In this document: positions 3,724 to 30,699 of the stretch, one piece after another | How the letters are laid out: every line of letters starts with the position of its first letter | Position numbering within the stretch: the first letter of the stretch is position 1 | Source of the DNA: Escherichia coli | GTDB taxonomy: Bacteria > Pseudomonadota > Gammaproteobacteria > Enterobacterales > Enterobacteriaceae | Direction: 5' to 3' (one strand) | Assembly: GCF_048403405.1 (NCBI RefSeq) | Contig: NZ_CP183129.1 | DNA: 64,000 bases | Position numbers and translations under genes: made by a program | Notes under the pieces: model-generated | The model's database searches: none | Seen by the model: the letters and a program-made list of their open reading frames with translations, nothing else | What the model was told of the DNA's origin: nothing

Positions 3724-4944
3724 GTGGTTGCTGAAAATCAGCCTGGGCACATTGATCAAATAAAGCAGACCAACGCGGGCGCGGTTTATCGCCTGATTGA
3801 TCAGCTTGGTCCAGTCTCGCGTATCGATCTTTCCCGTCTGGCGCAGCTGGCTCCTGCCAGTATCACTAAAATTGTCCGTGAGATGCTCGAAGCACACCTG
3901 GTGCAAGAGCTGGAAATCAAAGAAGCGGGGAACCGTGGCCGTCCGGCAGTGGGGCTGGTGGTTGAAACTGAAGCCTGGCACTATCTTTCTCTGCGCATTA
4001 GTCGCGGGGAGATTTTCCTTGCTTTGCGCGATCTGAGCAGCAAACTGGTAGTGGAGGAGTCGCAGGAACTGGCGTTAAAAGATGATTCGCCATTGCTGGA
4101 TCGTATCATTTCCCATATCGATCAGTTTTTTATCCGCCACCAGAAAAAACTTGAGCGTCTGACTTCGATTGCCATTACCTTGCCGGGAATTATTGATACG
4201 GAAAATGGTATTGTACATCGCATGCCGTTCTACGAGGATGTAAAAGAGATGCCGCTCGGCGAGGCGCTGGAGCAGCATACCGGCGTACCGGTTTATATTC
4301 AGCATGATATCAGCGCATGGACGATGGCTGAGGCCTTGTTTGGTGCCTCACGCGGGGCGCGCGATGTGATTCAGGTAGTTATCGATCACAACGTGGGGGC
4401 GGGCGTCATTACCGATGGTCATCTGCTACACGCAGGCAGCAGTAGCCTCGTGGAAATAGGTCACACGCAGGTCGACCCGTATGGGAAACGCTGTTATTGC
4501 GGGAATCACGGCTGCCTCGAAACCATCGCCAGTGTGGACAGTATTCTTGAGCTGGCACAGCTGCGTCTTAATCAATCCATGAGCTCGATGTTACATGGAC
4601 AGCCGTTAACCGTGGACTCATTGTGTCAGGCGGCATTGCGCGGCGATCTACTGGCAAAAGACATCATTACCGGGGTGGGCGCGCATGTCGGGCGCATTCT
4701 TGCCATCATGGTGAATTTATTTAACCCACAAAAAATACTGATTGGCTCACCGTTAAGTAAAGCGGCAGATATCCTCTTCCCGGTCATCTCGGACAGCATC
4801 CGTCAGCAGGCCCTTCCTGCGTATAGTCAGCACATTAGCGTTGAGAGTACTCAGTTTTCTAACCAGGGCACGATGGCAGGCGCTGCGCTGGTAAAAGACG
4901 CGATGTATAACGGTTCTTTGTTGATTCGTCTGTTGCAGGGTTAA
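3724..4944 (+). CDS. mlc: ROK-family global repressor Mlc (DgsA)
   Basis: 406 aa; N-terminal winged-helix domain and ROK sugar-kinase-like core with the Zn motif CYCGNHGCLE. Confidence 0.9.
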   Translation: MVAENQPGHIDQIKQTNAGAVYRLIDQLGPVSRIDLSRLAQLAPASITKIVREMLEAHLVQELEIKEAGNRGRPAVGLVVETEAWHYLSLRISRGEIFLALRDLSSKLVVEESQELALKDDSPLLDRIISHIDQFFIRHQKKLERLTSIAITLPGIIDTENGIVHRMPFYEDVKEMPLGEALEQHTGVPVYIQHDISAWTMAEALFGASRGARDVIQVVIDHNVGAGVITDGHLLHAGSSSLVEIGHTQVDPYGKRCYCGNHGCLETIASVDSILELAQLRLNQSMSSMLHGQPLTVDSLCQAALRGDLLAKDIITGVGAHVGRILAIMVNLFNPQKILIGSPLSKAADILFPVISDSIRQQALPAYSQHISVESTQFSNQGTMAGAALVKDAMYNGSLLIRLLQG

Positions 4945-5068
4945 CATTTTTTAACTGTTCTACCAAAATTTGCGCTATCTCAATTTGGGCCAGGAAAGCA
5001 TAACTTAGACTTTCAAGGTTAATTATTTTCCTGGTTTATATTTGTGAAGCATAACGGTGGAGTTAGTG

Positions 5069-5764
5069 ATGCTGAAGCGTTTCTTTATTACCGGTACAGA
5101 CACTTCTGTAGGGAAAACGGTGGTTTCCCGCGCATTGCTACAAGCGTTAGCCTCCCAGGGAAAAACGGTTGCGGGATATAAACCCGTAGCGAAGGGGAGC
5201 AAAGAGACACCCGAAGGGCTGCGTAATAAAGATGCCCTGGTGTTGCAGAGTGTTTCAACCATCGAACTGCCTTATGAAGCAGTGAATCCTATCGCGTTAA
5301 GCGAAGAAGAAAGTAGCGTGGCGCACAGTTGCCCAATCAATTACACCCTCATTTCAAACGGCCTGGCAAACCTGACCGATAAAGTCGATCATGTGGTGGT
5401 AGAAGGGACTGGCGGCTGGCGCAGTCTGATGAATGATTTGCGTCCGCTCTCTGAATGGGTGGTGCAGGAACAACTGCCGGTGTTGATGGTTGTCGGTATT
5501 CAGGAAGGTTGCATTAACCATGCACTGCTAACAGCTCAGGCGATCGCCAACGACGGGCTACCGCTCATTGGCTGGGTGGCTAACCGAATCAACCCAGGAC
5601 TTGCGCATTATGCGGAAATCATTGATGTGCTCGGTAAAAAACTTCCGGCACCGCTCATTGGTGAACTGCCTTATCTGCCGCGCGCCGAACAGCGTGAACT
5701 GGGGCAATACATCCGCTTAGCTATGCTTCGCAGTGTGCTGGCGGTAGATAGAGTCACGGTGTAA
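5069..5764 (+). CDS. ynfK: dethiobiotin synthetase paralog (BioD-like ATPase)
   Basis: P-loop [12 protein letters not shown] near the N-terminus; 231 aa from the MLKRFF start; located between mlc and clcB. Confidence 0.85.
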
Positions 5765-6973
5765 CGTCCGCGAAATTACCGACGCAATTACGCAGGCAAT
5801 CAATAAACCGGGGAGTAGCTGATACTCCCCGGTCATTTCACATATCATCAACGTCGACATAATCGGCGCGTGCGTGGTTGCCGCCAACAGTGTCGCCATC
5901 CCGGTCAATCCGAGTAAAAGCGTAATTTCTTCGCCATCAGGGAACCATAATCCCAGGCTACGACCATACAACATGCCAATGGCAAGACCGATAAATAGCG
6001 TCGGTGTAAAGACACCACCGGGCGCGCCAGAACCACTACTCGCCAGCACGGCAAACAGTTTACAGAGGAAGATCCCGGCAATGATCATTAACAGTGGCGG
6101 AGCGGTTAAAAAGGATTGTACGGTGCTATAGCCGTTGCCCCACACTGCAGGTGTGAACAGGGAAAGCAGACCCACGATCAACCCGCCCAGTGCCAGTTGC
6201 CAGGGCGGCGCAAGCTTGAGACTTACAAATTCACGATGACAGGCGTTCATCAACGTTAACAACAGTGGTCCGCACAGACCTGCCAGCACACCTGTACTGA
6301 TAATCAGCGCATAGTCACGAGCCTGAACCGTCACTGAGAGTTGTACACTGTAGAGTAACGCGTCGCTATGATTAATCAGATTGCTAACCAGCAATGCCAC
6401 GACGGCGGAAATAATCACCGGGCCGAGAGAGGCCAACATCATAGTGCCAAACAGCACTTCGGCTATAAATAAACTGCCAGCAAGCGGGGCGCGATAGGCC
6501 GCAGCCATTCCCGCCGCAGCTCCACAGGCGATCCATAATTTCCACTCCTGGCGTGGCGTAAAACGTTGGGCAAAACAGGAGGCGGCAAGGGCAGCTAAAA
6601 GAATCATCGCACCTTCGCGACCAATTGCACTGCCGCTGGTTACTACCAGCAGAGAGGCAAGGGATTTAACCAGGCTTGCTGCGTAATCAAACTGCCCATC
6701 GGTTTGCAACGCTTCCATGTAATCGGTCGGCGCATGAGGGCGTTGCTGGGTAAATTTCTGCCAGCCCATCAGCAACAAACCCGCCGCCAGTCCGCCGAGC
6801 GCCGGAGTTAGCAGCCGTCGCCAGGGGGAAAGATTTGTCGCTGCATTGACCAGACTGCCCGAGTCATTATTGAGGAACAACCACTCCAGTAGCAGCATTG
6901 CATGACGAAACCCGGCAACGGCAAAGGCCGCAAGAATACCGACGACTGTTGCGATAAGCAGACGGCGGAACAT
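5717..6973 (-). CDS. clcB: ClC-family voltage-gated chloride channel
   Basis: Polytopic membrane protein with ClC selectivity motifs (GSAIGREGA, GxFxP-type GVFTPT); 418 aa from the [12 protein letters not shown] start. Confidence 0.88.
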
Positions 6974-7166
6974 AGTGCGCAGATCCGGATAGATGTGTAG
7001 ATGATGCATGAGCAGAAATGGGCAATGAAATACGGGCGACTATTTTGCGGCAAAAGAAGCCAGACGCAAAAGCAGTGCGTGCTTTAAGAGATAAAAAACG
7101 TGACACTGTAACCTATTATTGCCGAATTGCGCCTAATCGACACCATCCGGCAATATTACGGTGATC

Positions 7167-7781
7167 CTATCGAAAGAGTGGTTTAACCGCGACAGGAATT
7201 AACAGTTGTGATTGCCATTGCGCCAGCGTTAAGCGAGCCAGTTCACCCAGTGCACGGTAGAAAGGGTGTTCTGCTTTTTCGATAAAAACGTCAAGAAAAC
7301 GTGTTGACCACGGAAAAAGGTGCCATGCCAGCAATTCTTCGCATTCTGTCTGGCGACCATTCTCCGCCAACCACGCAGCCATCAACAGCAGTGAACCAAA
7401 ATGATCTTCCGGTTCGTTTTGCTTCATTTCAAACTGAATGCCTTTCTCGCGCATCCACTGACGAAGTGCCAATGTTGAATCGCCAAACAGCACAGATTCG
7501 CGATCCAGCCAGACCGACCCCCACGGCGGTGATGGCAGAGCCCACGGACCGACAAACAAACGCTGCCAGGCCTGGGCGCGAGTCTCTTCACTCTGTGCCT
7601 GAAAAGCCGTCACCAGCGGCGCTAATGACGCTTCTGGTAGAGGCCACTGAGTTTCCCAGCCGTCACGGGTGAGTACCGCAACCAGAGGTGCGGCTTCCGC
7701 ACTCTCTGGAGCGTAATAAAACAGCGCGCCCAACACGCGCGCCGCGACAGAAAAATTATCTTGCTGTGAAAAATGGGTCAT
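7167..7781 (-). CDS. dmsD: Tat proofreading chaperone DmsD
   Basis: 204-aa TorD/DmsD-family protein directly downstream of the ynfEFGH operon. Confidence 0.88.
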   Translation of the reverse strand: MTHFSQQDNFSVAARVLGALFYYAPESAEAAPLVAVLTRDGWETQWPLPEASLAPLVTAFQAQSEETRAQAWQRLFVGPWALPSPPWGSVWLDRESVLFGDSTLALRQWMREKGIQFEMKQNEPEDHFGSLLLMAAWLAENGRQTECEELLAWHLFPWSTRFLDVFIEKAEHPFYRALGELARLTLAQWQSQLLIPVAVKPLFR

Positions 7782-7823
7782 TCCTAACATCCTGAAATGT
7801 GCGGGTTGCCCCGCACCAATTTG

Positions 7824-8678
7824 TTAACCTGCAATAGCCATTCCTACCGTCATGTGCAGGCCATAAAAGAGCACACGCCCGATCATCTCACCGCCAAGTA
7901 TGAGGATTAGCCCCAGAACAAGTCCGGCAACGTGAGGTTCACGGCGACGAATGAGCGGACAAAGCCAGCATCCTAGACCTGCGCATAACAATACCACACG
8001 CCAGACCTGTAAGGAGGCGTAATCTGGTACCAGTGCGCTGGCTTGTTGTACGGATGAGTGAATAGACGCCAGAGACAAACCTTGCAGCACAATCACCCCG
8101 GCACAAGCGATCAGCGCCAGAACGCTAATGATGGCAAAGGGTGTGGTATTAAATGTAATGCGGGCTGCCCGCAGAATTGCGGCAGCAAGTATTGGACCGC
8201 TCAACAATACTGTCAGGAAGAAAGCCAGCGTAGTGTAACCGTTATGCCAGGTTGGCACTGTGTCGATTTGATACACGCAGGTCATCATCCAGACGAAAAT
8301 GACGCCGAGCGCCATGCTGACAAGTAACCAGAGTTTCCCCAACGCTTGCGGCATTTTACCGATGACTGCCACCAGCCACCATAATCCGCCAACGGCAAAA
8401 AATATTGAACCGGCAGCAATTTCGTTACTCAGACCAGAAGCACCGATTCGATTCAGCGAGTTAAACGCTCGCAGTGGCGATCCCAGGTGCATGACAGAGG
8501 CAATAAACCCGATGCCCATCAACAGCCAGAGGAAAAACATGCCACGGACAATACGCTGACGGTCTGCGTCATTATTGGCGGCGAACCAGCCAATTCCGCT
8601 AACAATCAGCGCGCCTACTACGCATTGACCCAATACGGTAAAGATAACCAGTGGCCATTCATGCCATCCATTTCCCAT
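7824..8678 (-). CDS. ynfH: DMSO-reductase-type membrane anchor subunit
   Basis: 284-aa hydrophobic DmsC-like protein starting MGNGWHEWPLVIF; overlaps the ynfG stop. Confidence 0.88.
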   Translation of the reverse strand: MGNGWHEWPLVIFTVLGQCVVGALIVSGIGWFAANNDADRQRIVRGMFFLWLLMGIGFIASVMHLGSPLRAFNSLNRIGASGLSNEIAAGSIFFAVGGLWWLVAVIGKMPQALGKLWLLVSMALGVIFVWMMTCVYQIDTVPTWHNGYTTLAFFLTVLLSGPILAAAILRAARITFNTTPFAIISVLALIACAGVIVLQGLSLASIHSSVQQASALVPDYASLQVWRVVLLCAGLGCWLCPLIRRREPHVAGLVLGLILILGGEMIGRVLFYGLHMTVGMAIAG

Positions 8679-19578: not shown

Positions 19579-20874
19579 TTAATTTTTCATTGCTTCGTTA
19601 TGGGGCATGGTTGGGGCAAACTCGCTTAACTGTGTATTTAACAAAGCTACCTGTGCATTATTGTTTTCAGACATCCATTTTCCGTATACCTGAAATACCA
19701 TTTGCGCATCTGCATGGCCCATCTGGTTTGCTATAAATGCCGGGTTAGCACCAGCTGTCAGCGACCAGCAGGCATAAGTATGTCTCGACTGATATGATTT
19801 TCGATGGCGGAGTCCGGCACGTTTTATCGCTGCGTCCCACATCTGCCTTATTGAGTCAACGGTAAAATGGTCACCATAATTTTTTACTCTCGCTGACACT
19901 TCAGGTTGAAAAACAAAGGTGCATTTTTGTTTTTCTGTTCTGCCATACTCTCTGAGGTGAACATCAATGATATGCTCTTTGCTCAGTCTCGTTAATGTCA
20001 TCTGACTCCGGAGAGCGTCGATTGCTGGCTTAATAAGATGAATGACCCGATTGGTTCCCGCCTGTGTTTTTGGTACCGTGAAACGGTCTTTTGCTAAATT
20101 TCTCCTGATCATCATTGTTCCATTTTTCAGATCTATGTCCTCCCATCCAAGTGCACACAGCTCACCAGGGCGAACGCCAGTATAAACAGAAACACACCAT
20201 AAATTTTTGGCTTGCTGATTTCTGCACGCATCGATAAGACGGATGAATTCCTCCCGCGAAAGAGGATCCGGAATGGTTCTTGATTCCTTTAATGGCGAGA
20301 TCCCCTTAAACGGATTATCTGCCAGGTAACCGTTATCAACACCAAACTGGAACACGGCGTTAAGATTTGTCATGTAATTATTTACAGTTACAGCCGATCT
20401 CCCTGGTTGTGTAACAATATAGTTACTTTTGGGGATCTGGTATCCAGTCAGTAGCTCTTTACGAACCTCCAGTAATTTTTCTTTATTAATCGATGAGGCA
20501 AGATTTTTTTCACCGATTATGCTCAGGATATTTTTGATGACGGCACGGTATGTGTTGAGTGATGTTTTGGCGACTTCAGTTTCTTTCAGTGCCAGAAATT
20601 TTTCAGCCAGTTCTTTTATGGTTAAATCTTGTCGGGCCTCACCAAATTTTTCCAGATTGCGTGAGGAGGGAAACTGTTTTGCATAGTCGAAAACACCAGT
20701 TTTTATTGCGTAACAAACAGAGGAGCGTAGTTCACCTGCAACGCGCCTGTTTTTTGCTGTGTCAGGAACCCCCAGATTTTCCCTGACTCTTACGCCTTTA
20801 TAAACAAACCAGATACGTAATTTCCCTCCATGGTTTTCCACGCCTGTCGGATATTTCATTTCAACTTCTCTCAT
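19579..20874 (-). CDS. phage integrase (tyrosine recombinase)
   Basis: 431 aa; C-terminal catalytic region with RHTYACWSLTAGANPAFIANQMGHADAQMVFQVYGKW (R..H..Y signature). Confidence 0.88.
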   Translation of the reverse strand: MREVEMKYPTGVENHGGKLRIWFVYKGVRVRENLGVPDTAKNRRVAGELRSSVCYAIKTGVFDYAKQFPSSRNLEKFGEARQDLTIKELAEKFLALKETEVAKTSLNTYRAVIKNILSIIGEKNLASSINKEKLLEVRKELLTGYQIPKSNYIVTQPGRSAVTVNNYMTNLNAVFQFGVDNGYLADNPFKGISPLKESRTIPDPLSREEFIRLIDACRNQQAKNLWCVSVYTGVRPGELCALGWEDIDLKNGTMMIRRNLAKDRFTVPKTQAGTNRVIHLIKPAIDALRSQMTLTRLSKEHIIDVHLREYGRTEKQKCTFVFQPEVSARVKNYGDHFTVDSIRQMWDAAIKRAGLRHRKSYQSRHTYACWSLTAGANPAFIANQMGHADAQMVFQVYGKWMSENNNAQVALLNTQLSEFAPTMPHNEAMKN

Positions 20875-24386: not shown

Positions 24387-24663
24387 ATTGATAACAGAGG
24401 GCGTTGCAGCGGGGTTGTCACTTAAGCGTATGGTCAACCTGACAACTCGGTGTCCTCAACGGGGAAGGAATAACCCCGCCATACTTACCGCCGCGCCATT
24501 TTGCGGGTTGCCACAACCGGAAGCGCACGGTCGAATTAAATTTAACGACACCGTACAGTGAGACGAACTTCGCCGTGCGCTTTCGTGTTGTGTGCCTGCT
24601 TTTAACCACGTCAGGCGAGGTGGTATCCTTAAAATCACCACAGTTTTAAGGATTCATTAAGCA

Positions 24664-24984
24664 ATGTCGCAACCACCAATAAATCCGCTTAAGAACATGA
24701 AAATTGATTACTGGTATAAAGCGCTTACAGTTGTTGGCGCTGCGTTGTTTGTCTTTAATGGAACGTCTTTTTTTGACAGATATCCCGTTGTTCCATTGGG
24801 TTTTTTGTCCTCCGGCATCTTTTTTATTGGTTTGGGGGAGTGGATTAATCACCCTCTCAAAGTGAGATTTATTGGTCCTGGAGTTTGGACTCGTGGATAT
24901 AATCGTTCTTCGTGCGCACTCGGTATCATCTTCGACATACTTGGTTGTTTCCTGATTGTTACAGGAGTCGTCAAGTTCTTCTGA
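24664..24984 (+). CDS. hypothetical small membrane protein (3 predicted TM helices)
   Basis: ATG preceded by AAGGA at -8; hydrophobic segments YKALTVVGAALFVF, GFLSSGIFFIGLGEWI, ALGIIFDILGCFLIVTGVV. Overlaps a long minus-strand ORF, so the assignment is ambiguous. Confidence 0.35.
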   Translation: MSQPPINPLKNMKIDYWYKALTVVGAALFVFNGTSFFDRYPVVPLGFLSSGIFFIGLGEWINHPLKVRFIGPGVWTRGYNRSSCALGIIFDILGCFLIVTGVVKFF

Positions 24985-24989
24985 TGTAA

Positions 24990-25221
24990 AACCGCAAATG
25001 GGGCACGTAACGGGAATTTTGAAAAGCGTTTCTCCGGGTTCCAGAACAAAATTTTCTGCGGTCTGATTTTGCTTCTCATATTTGTGCTCCGCGTCATTGT
25101 GAGAGCACATTCTTATTCTGAGTGCCTGTTTAAACTCACTGAAGCTGAGAGCTTCTTCGCCTTCGGCAAGGCCTTCGAAGTATTCTTCGTAAGCCTTTTC
25201 CATGATTGTGTCGAAATCCAT
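24990..25221 (-). CDS. hypothetical acidic early protein with CxxC motif (ydfB/ydfC position); 3' boundary uncertain
   Basis: N-terminal part of minus ORF 24646..25263: MDFDTIMEKAYEEYFEGLAEGEE...TCPICGF looks protein-like; the remainder of the ORF is antisense to the plus-strand membrane ORF and looks spurious. Confidence 0.3.
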
Positions 25222-25222
25222 A

Positions 25223-25378
25223 TCACTCACCTGAGTTTCTTTCCAGCCAGCGACGGGCACCATTTTCGGTTTTAAACGTTTTGCTTTTGGTATACGTCAT
25301 CGCGGTGAACGTGCCGTCCTGGTTGGGGAACACGCCACATACCAGAGATTCGCTGTTGCCAAGATCGATAGTATCCAT
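25223..25378 (-). CDS. hypothetical small early protein (ydfA-like, 51 aa)
   Basis: Internal Met of ORF 25223..25432: MDTIDLGNSESLVCGVFPNQDGTFTAMTYTKSKTFKTENGARRWLERNSGE; first gene downstream of dicA, as ydfA is in Qin. Confidence 0.4.
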   Translation of the reverse strand: MDTIDLGNSESLVCGVFPNQDGTFTAMTYTKSKTFKTENGARRWLERNSGE

Positions 25379-26034: not shown

Positions 26035-26262
26035 ATGCTTAAAGTTGACGCAATTACTTTTTTTGGCAGCAAAACAAAGCTTGCCAATGCCGCAGGAGTG
26101 AGACTGGCAAGTGTTGCTGCTTGGGGGATACTGGTTCCTGAAGGTCGCGCGATGCGTCTACAGGAGGCATCTGGCGGGGAGCTTCAGTATGATCCCAAAG
26201 TTTATGACGAATATCGTAAGACGAAGCGGGCGGGGCGGTTGAACAATGAAAATCACTCCTGA
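26035..26262 (+). CDS. dicC: Cro-like small HTH regulator (DicC-like)
   Basis: About 76 aa, HTH KTKLANAAGVRLASVAAWG; good RBS (AGAGGGGGC) before the ATG. Confidence 0.7.
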   Translation: MLKVDAITFFGSKTKLANAAGVRLASVAAWGILVPEGRAMRLQEASGGELQYDPKVYDEYRKTKRAGRLNNENHS

Positions 26263-26767
26263 ACAGGCTCGTGAGGCTCTGGATGCCTGGATATGTCGAC
26301 CAGGAATGACACAGGAGCAGGCGACGATATTAATCACTGAAGCATTCTGGGCTTTGAAAGAGCGCCCGAACATCGATGTTCAGCGTGTCACATATGAAGG
26401 TGGCGCGGTTGATCAGCGAGCGCTTAGCGTTAATCGAGTGAAGATATTCGAACGCTGGAAGGCTATCGACACCAGGGATAAGCGTGAAAAGTTCACAGCG
26501 CTAGTGCCTGCAATTATGGAGGCTATCCGGATTAGTGATTTCAGGTTGTATCGTGAGATCAGTGATGGAAAAAGTATTACGTACATGATCGCCGGGTTAA
26601 ATAAAGAATATGGCGATGTGGTGGAATCCGGACTGCTTTTTGCAGATCCTGCCGTTGTAGATCGTGAAACTGACGAACTTATAGAAAAAGCAATTGCTTT
26701 CAAGCTTGCGTATCGACAGCAATACCAACAAAAAGCTGGATGGAATTATGAGTCTTCTTTTTGCTGA
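26246..26767 (+). CDS. hypothetical early protein (cII/YdaT-like position)
   Basis: 173-aa ORF between the cro-like and replication genes; no recognisable catalytic motif. Confidence 0.5.
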   Translation: MKITPEQAREALDAWICRPGMTQEQATILITEAFWALKERPNIDVQRVTYEGGAVDQRALSVNRVKIFERWKAIDTRDKREKFTALVPAIMEAIRISDFRLYREISDGKSITYMIAGLNKEYGDVVESGLLFADPAVVDRETDELIEKAIAFKLAYRQQYQQKAGWNYESSFC

Positions 26768-28155: not shown

Positions 28156-28636
28156 TGTTAGGTATTTTAGACGTTACTAGATTAAAAAGCATTAGTTCAG
28201 GAGTGAATTGACATTCTCATTTTTCATGGCACAGGGTAGATCTGGCGTGGTTGTCCGCTTTGTGCCAACAGCGGACGTTACTAACGAAACTGTGAGTTAA
28301 AAACGGGAGCTGGTCACCTCCATCCCGCGAAATGGAATTCAAAAATGCCCTCATGTACGGTACTTCTAGTCTGATGTGAGCATTTTCGTGGATTTTTTCG
28401 AGCCACTCCAACGAATGATTACATTCAGTTTCGGGCACTAAAACGTCATAAATCCGCAAGTTGAGGAGTAGCGATCAGCCAATTGGTTAAAAAACAGCTT
28501 TAATTCCCTTTTTCAAGCAGGCTCCTTGTCGCACGTCTGGTGCATCCAATTCATTTCAGTTACCCTGATGCCATACTGGCACGGACTAGCTCTCTTAATT
28601 GGCGCTGGTTTGTTAACCTTGTCCGCTGTCGGGTCT

Positions 28637-28667
28637 TTGTAAGTTGTAATTCCTAAACTAGCATAAT
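28637..28667 (+). promoter_or_regulatory. candidate sigma70 promoter for the RelA/SpoT-domain gene
   Basis: TTGTAA (28637-28642), 19-bp spacer, CATAAT (28662-28667), about 20 bp upstream of the ATG at 28689. Confidence 0.35.
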
Positions 28668-28688
28668 TTTATTATAAGGCCTCTTACT

Positions 28689-29714
28689 ATGCACATTTTA
28701 TCTGTTTCAAAAAAGGAAGTTGGAAGAGCTGGGGATAGATTAGTTTCTCAGTTTGGTACAGGTGAAAAATATAAAGAGGAAGATGTACAAATTCTTCATG
28801 AGTGGAGGATGTTGCATTTATATCCTTTAAGTAAAATACAATTTTATATGGAAAGAGAGGCTATTTCCTTAAACAAAAATGCGTTACTATCCTCTAGAAT
28901 TAAGAGGATGCCTTCCATTGTTACTAAGCTTTCTAGATTTCCTGATATGAAGTTAAATAAGATGCAGGATCTTGGTGGGTGCCGGGCTATTTTAAATAAT
29001 CTGGATCAAGTGTATGATTTAGTTAATAAAATAAAATCATCTAAATTCTCACATGAACTAGTTAGAATGGATGATTACATGATAGACGTGAAAGATTCTG
29101 GTTATAGAAGCTTTCATATGGTCTATTCATTCCAAAATAAAAAATTTCCATCTTTAAATGGGTTGCGCATTGAAATGCAAATAAGAACAGCTATTCAACA
29201 TAGCTGGGCTACAGCAGTTGAAATGGTTGGTTTGTTTCGAAAGGAATCATTGAAATCTGGTTTTGGTGATGCAAGATGGCTTAGGTTTTTTGAATTGGTA
29301 TCAGAGCTTTTTTATAAACTTGAGTATGAAAAAGAACCATCTGGGAGTTATATAAAAATATCAGAAGAATTAAGTTATTTATCCGTCGAGTTGAATGTTT
29401 TCGATATATTAGCTGCTTACAATGCCGTAGTTAGCCATATTGAGGGTAGCAAAAAATATGATAAAGGACTTTGCATAATTGTTGTTGATACCATAAAGCG
29501 GAATATAAATATAAAGAGCTTCGAAAATCACAATCATGCGAAGGCGGCAGAAGCTTATGTCGAGTCTGAAAAATACTGCGCGGAAAATAAAGGCTGTGAA
29601 GTGGCTATGGTTTCTGTTAGTTCAATTAGTGAATTAAAAAATGCATATCCTGCTTACTTTTTAGATACGAAAACTTTTTTAAATTATCTCAGTAGGTATG
29701 TTTTTATAAAATAA
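28689..29714 (+). CDS. RelA/SpoT-domain nucleotidyltransferase (small-alarmone-synthetase / toxSAS-like) with uncharacterised C-terminal domain
   Basis: 341 aa. All synthetase-fold motifs present in order: RIKRMPSIVTK, DLGGCRAIL, YRSFHMVY, EMQIRTAIQHSWATAVE. C-terminal ~150 aa unrecognised. The gene lies in a conspicuously AT-rich island. Confidence 0.8.
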   Translation: MHILSVSKKEVGRAGDRLVSQFGTGEKYKEEDVQILHEWRMLHLYPLSKIQFYMEREAISLNKNALLSSRIKRMPSIVTKLSRFPDMKLNKMQDLGGCRAILNNLDQVYDLVNKIKSSKFSHELVRMDDYMIDVKDSGYRSFHMVYSFQNKKFPSLNGLRIEMQIRTAIQHSWATAVEMVGLFRKESLKSGFGDARWLRFFELVSELFYKLEYEKEPSGSYIKISEELSYLSVELNVFDILAAYNAVVSHIEGSKKYDKGLCIIVVDTIKRNINIKSFENHNHAKAAEAYVESEKYCAENKGCEVAMVSVSSISELKNAYPAYFLDTKTFLNYLSRYVFIK

Positions 29715-30448
29715 AAAATGTTATCTGGAGTGGTCTGAATTCTACTAACTTAGTTTTTTCAGACCGCTTCTGACCACAATGGCCTGTGAGGTTCTGCTGC
29801 TAGTCAACATAAAATAACAAAGCCGGCAGGTGGTGGTTGTTGTAAAGTTATTCAATGACATTCATGGAGGCTTAAGCGAATTATTTGTCCCTGGTCGGTA
29901 TGGTGGCAACAGCTTGTTGCGAGAATTTGGCTAATTTGGACTGACTTCCGCTCCTTGCTCAAAGCGGACTAGAAGGTTAGCTTGTGTCGGACTTTGCGTA
30001 TTAAAAGAAGTGCTGGTGGTGACTAGTGGTTGAGCCCCATTTCCACAGAAAAAATCAGAGAAACTATACCCAATAGTTGTATTGAATCACTGACGAGACA
30101 GCCTCATATTCATCAGGACTGGTGTACGTCCAATACAGGAGGTTGTGGTGCTGGTTCTCAAATGTGCGCTGGCTATTACGGCTGTAATGGCGATTTATTG
30201 TCTTGCTATTGTTCTTATGGATCGCCTTTCTGACTGATTTCATATTGGCGAGGTAAAGGTAGTTAAGTAGAATGGCTGCGGGTGCTTGAGGCTATCTGCC
30301 TCGGGCATGAACACCAAAGGCAGATAGAGAAAAGCCCCAGTTAACATTACGCGTCCTGCAAGACGCTTAACATTAATCTGAGGCCAATTTCATGCTAGAC
30401 ACATGTAGGTTAGCCTCTTACGTGCCGGAAGGCAAGGAGAAGCAGGCT

Positions 30449-30604
30449 ATGAAGCAGCAAAAGGCGATGTTAATCGCCCTGATCGTCATCTGTTTAACCG
30501 TCATAGTGACGGCACTGGTAACGAGGAAAGACCTCTGCGAGGTACGAATCCGAACCGGCCAGACGGAGGTCGCTGTCTTCACAGCTTACGAACCTGAGGA
30601 GTAA
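30449..30604 (+). CDS. hokD: Hok/Gef-family membrane toxin (type I toxin)
   Basis: 51 aa, MKQQKAMLIALIVICLTVIVTALVTRKDLCEVRIRTGQTEVAVFTAYEPEE; embedded in a longer mok-like upstream ORF (30392..). Confidence 0.85.
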   Translation: MKQQKAMLIALIVICLTVIVTALVTRKDLCEVRIRTGQTEVAVFTAYEPEE

Positions 30605-30672
30605 GAGACCCGGCGAGGGAGAAATCCCTCGCCACCTCTGATGTGGCAGGCATCCTCAACGCACCCGCACTT

Positions 30673-30699
30673 AACCCGCTTCGGCGGGTTTTTGTTTTT
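30673..30699 (+). terminator. intrinsic terminator downstream of hok
   Basis: AACCCGCTTCGGCGGGTT hairpin followed by TTTTGTTTTT. Confidence 0.7.

Follow-up and report, generated by a model that had tools for sequence, protein, structure and literature searches.

The closest described relatives of the gene reported here are the CapRel proteins, fused toxin-antitoxins built on a toxic small alarmone synthetase (toxSAS). CapRel-SJ46 of Salmonella phage SJ46, the fused toxSAS whose structures are 7ZTB and 9ERV in the PDB (PMC11782079, PMC9712102), is a tRNA pyrophosphokinase activated by the major capsid protein or by Gp54-Bas11 (PMC9712102, PMC11578894), and few other immune proteins of bacteria have been shown to recognise a phage protein directly. 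The tested CapRels named in the literature are SJ46, Ebc, and Kp (PMC9712102); all are close relatives of one another, and in the fused CapRel-Ebc and CapRel-Kp the variable C-terminal region sets phage specificity (PMC9712102). We describe a 341-residue protein encoded in a 64,000-nucleotide stretch of Escherichia coli DNA (RefSeq assembly GCF_048403405.1, contig NZ_CP183129.1; the whole stretch is called the window, and DNA coordinates of the locus refer to it). From its sequence, a structural model and analogy with characterised relatives, this protein is probably a fused and autoinhibited tRNA pyrophosphokinase of the CapRel family, which would be switched on by a phage protein to abort infection and which is carried as cargo by a Qin-like prophage. 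It is an uncharacterised, deep-branching enterobacterial member of the family with an architecture that has already been described, and it reveals no new principle.

The gene is a single open reading frame (ORF) with an ATG start and a TAA end at 28689..29714 (+), and its product is identical to RefSeq WP_000547812.1, annotated as 'RelA/SpoT domain-containing protein'. At the local base composition, the chance of an open frame of 341 codons is about 6e-14, and the ORF is a genuine gene. A preliminary description of this DNA had reported a product of 341 residues, which is what the ORF list and RefSeq give, but it started the feature at 28460 and the true ORF start is 28689. The guanine-plus-cytosine (GC) content of the ORF is 0.326 (0.266 at third codon positions), compared to 0.491 for the window, and a sliding window places the GC trough from about 28500 to about 29900. 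The AT-rich island of the preliminary description therefore stands, while its bounds (28200 to 30300) do not, the cassette that holds the gene running from about 28277 to 29956. The gene, the parts of its product, and the element that follows it are as follows.

28689..29714 (+): CapRel-family ORF, 341 amino acids (aa) plus stop; from the ORF list, the RefSeq annotation, and full-length matches to PDC-S33, phrog_4773, and CapRel-SJ46
28689..28874 (+): N-terminal three-helix extension, residues 1-62; from AlphaFold2 secondary structure and conservation
28875..29258 (+): toxSYNTH (RelA/SpoT synthetase) core, residues 63-190; from Pfam PF04607, residue mapping, and Foldseek matches to CapRel, RelP, and RelQ
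29259..29438 (+): three 'anchor' helices joining the enzyme to the sensor domain, residues 191-250; from AlphaFold2 and a C-terminal profile match to SJ46 residues 211-370
29439..29618 (+): pseudo-zinc-finger domain (pseudo-ZFD), residues 251-310; from AlphaFold2 topology and the lowest regional identity
29619..29711 (+): autoinhibitory switch and C-terminal helix, residues 311-341; from alignment to SJ46 and AlphaFold2
29719..29778 (+): stable stem-loop whose first base lies 5 nucleotides past the stop codon; from folding and inverted repeat I5

By sequence, the protein belongs to the CapRel family along its whole length. In a phmmer search of the PDB, residues 6-338 matched 7ZTB and 9ERV (E 2.6e-34), and BLASTP against the CapRel-SJ46 protein gave 28% identity over 369 columns (E 5e-40). 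CapRel-SJ46 was by far the best characterised match, reaching E 5e-32 in tblastn on phage SJ46, compared to 5e-6 for the weak match of Phrann gp29 (PhRel) to residues 67-259. Full-length matches were also obtained to the PADLOC candidate PDC-S33 (E 5e-119) and to phrog_4773 (E 4.8e-134), both of which CapRel-SJ46 itself matches over its whole length. Pfam RelA_SpoT (PF04607) spans residues 69-175 (E 1.1e-17), and together with fold matches to CapRel, RelP, and RelQ it bears out the earlier assignment of the N-terminal 190 or so residues to a RelA/SpoT synthetase. The four motifs on which that assignment had been based are present in the order given: RIKRMPSIVTK at residues 70-80, DLGGCRAIL at 94-102, YRSFHMVY at 139-146, and EMQIRTAIQHSWATAVE at 162-178.

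The C-terminal 150 or so residues, which had been said to match nothing, proved to be homologous to the CapRel antitoxin and sensor. Searched alone, residues 191-341 found CapRel-SJ46 as the sole match in the whole PDB and in the correct register (E 0.0027), and a profile built from 28 C-terminal halves, with SJ46 left out, matched CapRel-SJ46 residues 211-370 end to end (E 6.5e-17) with no other PDB match. Among 1.84 billion representative proteins the C-terminal half retrieved 1,137 clusters, and in full-length matches of 330-400 aa it always lies at about residues 190-345. This constant position indicates that the fused architecture is the norm of a large family. A word-indexed search returned 261 homologues, mostly full-length, from Enterobacterales, Vibrio, Aeromonas, cyanobacteria, Burkholderiales, and others.

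The predicted structure agrees with this placement. We used a 56-sequence alignment to obtain an AlphaFold2 model with a mean predicted local distance difference test score (pLDDT) of 90.3 and a predicted template modelling score (pTM) of 0.88, in which the synthetase fold leads into three helices within 195-246. Residues 260-310 then form a sheet of three strands, the second and third joined through a helix; residues 321-324 make a short helix, and 328-338 form the terminal one. Foldseek against the PDB ranked 9ERV and 7ZTB at the top, and these alone aligned over about 353 columns (template modelling score 0.68), whereas the alignments of RelP, RelQ, and Rel structures were confined to about 190 N-terminal residues. 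The model differs from the open crystal form of CapRel by a global root-mean-square deviation (rmsd) of about 10.5 Å; this large deviation and the short helix 321-324 suggest that the protein was modelled in the closed state. Thus sequence, profile and fold each match the protein to CapRel over its full length.

Within the model, the N-terminal extension consists of helices 8-24, 30-41, and 44-61 and bears the family-conserved residues W39, R40, H43, and P46. In FaRel2 the equivalent region takes part in tRNA recognition, and it is absent from RelP (PMC11782079). The anchor helices (195-213, 219-234, and 237-246) are poorly conserved, and the pseudo-ZFD, made of strand 260-267, strand 272-278, helix 283-299, and strand 303-310, is the least conserved part of the protein. 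The CapRel pseudo-ZFD has been described as beta-beta-alpha-beta, and the modelled topology agrees with the published CapRel anchors, pseudo-ZFD, and switch (PMC9712102). By analogy, the pseudo-ZFD is the predicted sensor of a phage protein. The switch reads A319-Y320-P-A-Y323-F324, its YXXY motif lying at 29646-29657, and the C-terminal helix 328-338 comes after it. The isoelectric point (pI) of the enzyme half is 9.7, compared to 9.6 in SJ46, and the C-terminal half is mildly acidic (pI 5.7).

The residues on which CapRel function depends were then located by alignment to SJ46, with conservation counted in the 56-member family alignment. SJ46 R79 and R116, which form the adenine pocket of the ATP donor site, align with R70 and R99, and Y139 of the G-loop (G138-Y139) corresponds to the G-loop tyrosine Y155, whose replacement by alanine abolishes defence (PMC9712102). 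In DLGGCR, D94 supplies the conserved acidic residue. The segment A319-Y320-P-A-Y323-F aligns to SJ46 A351-Y352-P-N-Y355-F, where Y352A and Y355A are constitutively toxic (PMC9712102). At the published interface residues of SJ46, namely A351, A77, V338, L339, and A341 (PMC9712102), the protein keeps identical or conservative residues (A77 to S68, V338 to A306, L339 to M307, A341 to S309, A351 to A319). R70, R73, D94, R99, G138, Y139, H143, E162, Q164, R166, Y320, and P321 are invariant in all 56 members; Y323 is a tyrosine in 50 and a phenylalanine in the other 6. As judged from these alignments, every mapped functional residue is retained. Compared to the query, distant homologues are 45-50% identical in the toxSYNTH core and about 40% identical in the switch, but 17-38% identical in the anchors and pseudo-ZFD. 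The CapRel papers report the same pattern of divergence and ascribe it to co-evolution with phage triggers (PMC9712102, PMC11578894).

The pseudo-ZFD contains three cysteines and two histidines, but as judged from sequence conservation a genuine zinc finger is unlikely, since these residues are not conserved across the family and alternate with F/Y/A/V. C262, C297, and C303 (window 29472-29597) are largely conserved in the enterobacterial clade and absent from SJ46, and F/Y/A/V take their positions in distant members. From this substitution pattern they are probably buried core positions and, less probably, a metal or disulfide site specific to the clade.

Compared feature by feature, the protein resembles CapRel-SJ46 in being encoded by one ORF of comparable length, with an identical order of N-terminal helices, toxSYNTH, anchors, pseudo-ZFD, YXXY switch, and terminal helix, in matching PDC-S33 and phrog_4773, in its R/R adenine pocket, G-loop tyrosine, YXXY, and interface positions, and in being accessory cargo of a temperate phage. 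It differs in that identity is 28-30% overall and about 17% in the pseudo-ZFD, in being 32 residues shorter through deletions in toxSYNTH loops and the pseudo-ZFD, and in its carrier, a lambdoid Qin-like prophage rather than the P1-like plasmid prophage of SJ46. It shares family and architecture with CapRel-Ebc and CapRel-Kp, but CapRel-Ebc is close to SJ46 (70% identity) while the present protein falls in a separate deep-branching enterobacterial clade. FaRel2/ATfaRel2 of Coprobacillus sp. D7 is a tRNA-CCA pyrophosphokinase that is neutralised when the pseudo-ZFD places its YXXY 3-10 helix in the ATP donor site (PMC11782079), the mechanism we infer here, but that system is bipartite and heterotetrameric with a circularly permuted antitoxin, and the PDB search with the present protein gave no sequence match to it. 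The fused toxSAS toxin and sensor of the CapRel kind that the preliminary description had proposed is thus borne out by CapRel-family membership over the full length, by retention of the catalytic residues and YXXY, and by the solitary position of the gene in a variable prophage slot.

By analogy with published work on CapRel and its relatives (PMC9712102, PMC11578894, PMC11782079), the protein would work as follows. In an uninfected cell it would be autoinhibited, with the YXXY switch docked in the ATP-adenine pocket. Upon infection by a susceptible phage, a newly made phage protein would bind the variable surface of the pseudo-ZFD and anchors (residues ~195-310) and hold the protein open, and the enzyme, once freed, would use ATP to pyrophosphorylate tRNAs at their 3' CCA end. 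This modification would block aminoacylation and translation, resulting in abortive infection. The proposed tRNA substrate draws on the published coupling of donor-site (YXXY) neutralisation to tRNA-targeting toxSAS (PMC11782079), on the N-terminal helical extension, and on the basic character of the enzyme half, which matches that of SJ46. The protein is a distant relative of CapRel, as sequence and model indicate, and its putative activity, substrate, trigger, and defence phenotype are read across from the characterised homologue.

Several points weigh against this reading. Identity to the nearest characterised member is just 28-30%, and about 17% in the pseudo-ZFD, so that the SJ46 trigger is not transferable and the substrate is transferable only with caution. 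The literature searched holds no experiment on WP_000547812.1 or its clade, and neither PDC-S33 nor WP_000547812 is mentioned in it. The closed state is suggested solely by helix 321-324 and the rmsd of about 10.5 Å. Finally, the gene lies in the early-right operon with no convincing promoter upstream, and it may not be expressed in a lysogen.

CapRel-SJ46 responds to the major capsid protein or Gp54 (PMC9712102, PMC11578894); the sensor region of the present protein can hardly be aligned to that of SJ46 at all, and it therefore gives no basis for naming a trigger. It is possible, though less likely than not, that the shorter pseudo-ZFD, with about 17% identity to SJ46, senses a class of phage protein other than HK97-fold capsid or Gp54, or that the enzyme selects another subset of tRNAs or another acceptor. 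If true, a different trigger or substrate would widen the known range of one-protein toxSAS immunity, and a different trigger would explain coexistence with the capsid of the protein's own lambdoid prophage. With enzyme and switch kept and the sensor essentially different, the protein makes a good comparative case for how the pseudo-ZFD scaffold gains new specificities, and also for why the capsid of a lambdoid prophage does not set off the sensor that the prophage itself carries.

The alternative that holds up best concerns the product. The same fused and autoinhibited architecture might make a toxic alarmone, either (pp)pApp or (p)ppGpp, and deplete ATP as FaRel, Tas1, and GRel/Pag1B do. The catalytic domain is of a generic RelA/SpoT synthetase type, with the (p)ppGpp synthetase YjbM (NF053588) as its best NCBIfam match, identity to the sole biochemically tested fused CapRel is 28%, and toxSAS substrates vary by subfamily (PMC11782079; bioRxiv 10.64898/2026.04.06.716658). 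The YjbM match, however, reaches 57.6 bits where the cutoff is 320, and YXXY, which is retained here, blocks the donor site, the mode of neutralisation reported for tRNA-targeting toxSAS; in makers of (pp)pApp, Tis1-like domains block the acceptor site and the pseudo-ZFD has lost YXXY (PMC11782079). The N-terminal helical extension and basic enzyme half, as in SJ46 and FaRel2, likewise point away from alarmone synthesis, and a sequence search of the PDB at E<=1 contained no Tas1 or FaRel structure among its matches. On balance we regard an alarmone product as unlikely.

The genomic setting bears on the remaining alternatives. A Qin-like lambdoid prophage, inserted beside rspAB/ynfA, carries the gene; this prophage appears complete, from an integrase (19579-20874) through terminase, portal, and tail genes, and contains no tRNA genes. 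On one side of the gene are those of the replication region (YdaT-family, replication protein, DUF977) and on the other hokD-rem-ydfU-ydfT (antiterminator), and the gene is co-directional with the early-right operon. It is the only annotated gene of a cargo cassette that is present in 40-41 of 5,426 E. coli genomes, while the flanks of the cassette occur in more than 1,000. A 2.2-kb segment with the gene is 100% identical in 40 of the 5,426 complete genomes, and the 90%-identity cluster of the protein comprises Escherichia, Enterobacter, Citrobacter, and Klebsiella. The exact protein is found on at least 1,000 public contigs, always under a generic name; correct annotation would improve counts of defence systems in E. 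coli genomes.

The signals around the ORF offer little guidance on expression. The promoter-like hexamers reported in the preliminary description were not recovered, a scan for sigma-70-like consensus sites finding none upstream of the ORF at threshold and 5 in the whole region, compared to 6.2 expected by chance. By eye, a weak TTGTAA-N17-TTTTAT is the sole promoter candidate upstream of the ORF. A conserved promoter was not callable, the loci of the 85%- and 76%-identical homologues sharing DNA within the ORF alone. Downstream, the stem-loop at 29719-29778 has a folding energy of -27.6 kcal/mol (z -3.9), which was not equalled in 200 shuffles. Without a U-tract it does not qualify as a canonical intrinsic terminator, and it may mark a 3' end or act as a stability element.

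These data give some room to the view that the gene primarily serves the resident prophage, for example by controlling the prophage's lytic development or by excluding a host stress response, or that it is a selfish element without benefit to the host. The gene is on the same strand as, and immediately downstream of, early-right replication and antitermination genes, and with no independent promoter detected it may be expressed mainly on induction. Its neighbours also include toxin-type modules, a YdaT-family gene and hok/sok. Nevertheless, a single polypeptide is incompatible with differential decay of toxin and antitoxin, and characterised relatives protect against heterologous phages from their native promoters (PMC9712102). 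A variable sensor next to a conserved enzyme is a signature of an arms race with external triggers, and homologues occupy other moron slots as well as a non-prophage island beside dCTP-deaminase-like genes. We therefore consider these readings improbable.

The CapRel-like reading of a self-contained protein was also set against toxSAS systems that use a second gene. Such systems exist (bioRxiv 10.64898/2026.04.06.716658; PMC7229694), and the toxSAS effector could in principle depend on a separate activator or antitoxin, as in PANGU type I, where a nucleoid-associated protein (NAP) accompanies GRel/Pag1B, or in a bicistronic toxin-antitoxin of the PhRel/CapRel type; the weak match to Phrann gp29 (PhRel; E 5e-6) lends this some weight. 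PhRel/ATphRel (Phrann gp29/gp30) and split CapRel/ATcapRel belong to a sister toxSYNTH subfamily with a homologous antitoxin and act there in prophage-borne superinfection defence (PMC7229694), but they have separate toxin and antitoxin genes, unlike the single polypeptide found here, which has no downstream partner. Pag1B of PANGU type I (GRel toxSAS plus NAP sensor) is likewise an antiphage toxSAS with a C-terminal regulatory domain (bioRxiv 10.64898/2026.04.06.716658); its neighbouring nucleoid-associated protein, acidic DNA-mimic C-terminal domain, and (pp)pGpp synthesis have no counterpart among the features seen here. The cassette holds no other annotated or family-matching gene, and the C-terminal half is homologous to the in-cis antitoxin of CapRel and, at pI 5.7, is no acidic DNA mimic. 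Four other homologues (P0012, P0013, P0003, and P0007) have wholly different neighbours, with no conserved gene among their loci. Dependence on a partner is thus very improbable.

Among related loci, a 65%-identical E. coli homologue sits in another lambdoid prophage, between antiterminator Q and holin and on the opposite strand. A 66%-identical Serratia marcescens homologue (P0012; L007-L009, about 3845-8030) has an HxsD/radical-SAM pair on one side and three DCD-like (dCTP deaminase/dUTPase-like) genes in tandem on the other, in what looks like a chromosomal defence island. Outside the ORF, no DNA homology extends to the loci of the 85%- and 76%-identical homologues. Two short frames around the gene were considered as hidden partner genes and rejected: an 80-aa antisense ORF at 28217-28459 (-) and a 67-aa ORF at 30030-30233, neither of which has a PADLOC match or is annotated in RefSeq. 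The former, which straddles the left cassette junction, is unlikely to be a real gene.

A housekeeping small alarmone synthetase of the RelQ/RelP/YjbM kind, in the prophage by chance, is effectively refuted: Pfam RelA_SpoT and weak YjbM/RelP/RelQ matches in sequence and structure speak for it, but the score of 57.6 bits falls far below the NCBIfam equivalog cutoff of 320, small alarmone synthetase structures cover just about 190 of 341 residues, the extra 150 residues are the CapRel antitoxin and sensor, and just 40 of 5,426 E. coli genomes have the gene, which sits on an AT-rich cassette.

Flank searches and junction alignments define the cassette and the cargo found in the same position elsewhere.

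28277..29956 (no strand): variable cargo cassette of about 1.7 kb, GC 0.37, with this gene alone; from flank searches, junction alignments, and GC
28253..28278 (no strand): left cassette junction, palindrome GTCCGCT-N10-AGCGGAC; from junction alignment, fold z -1.7
29944..29969 (no strand): right cassette junction, a related element ending GCTCAAAGCGGAC; from junction alignment, fold z -0.7
Same slot in prophage CE0026a: DUF4209 protein, the PADLOC candidate PDC-S39
Same slot in prophage R1: 195-aa hypothetical protein
Same slot in prophage STEC2018-553: SDR/HTH/integrase block

As read from these alignments, the DUF977-to-hok interval (flanks 28156-28278 and 29957-30279) is a cargo-swapping slot of Qin-like prophages. 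The AT-rich cassette is horizontally acquired. Loci with other cargo diverge just after the left element and become identical again from the right element. In K-12 Qin, relBE lies immediately upstream of hokD and the right junction differs, at about window position 30435. A survey of the DUF977-hok slot could yield more defence candidates, the 195-aa protein included. The junction repeat was considered as a recombination site and rejected: CAAMAGCGGAC matches 3 times in the window, compared to 2.5 expected, the right copy carries an indel, and the hairpins are not significant. The junction elements may be recombination microhomology or chance.

Other features of the prophage were noted. In the annotation of the identical MS 69-1 locus, a YdaT-family 'toxin' gene stands beside Cro/CI-type regulators in the immunity/replication region, and to the left of these are the dicB/ydfD genes of cell division and lysis (window 26246-26767 and 24646-25263). 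Immediately past the cassette comes a complete hok/sok type I toxin-antitoxin locus (window 30280-30604), composed of an Rfam sok match at 30280-30454 (117 bits, compared to a gathering score of 59) and hokD at 30449-30604. K-12 hokD is without the upstream sok region; homology to K-12 Qin begins at about window position 30435, with relBE directly before hokD. Past hokD, a sub-threshold Rfam isrK match at 30613-30694 (25.7 bits, compared to a gathering score of 50) overlaps a terminator hairpin (AACCCGCTTCGGCGGGTT plus a T-run) and is most likely just the hok terminator.

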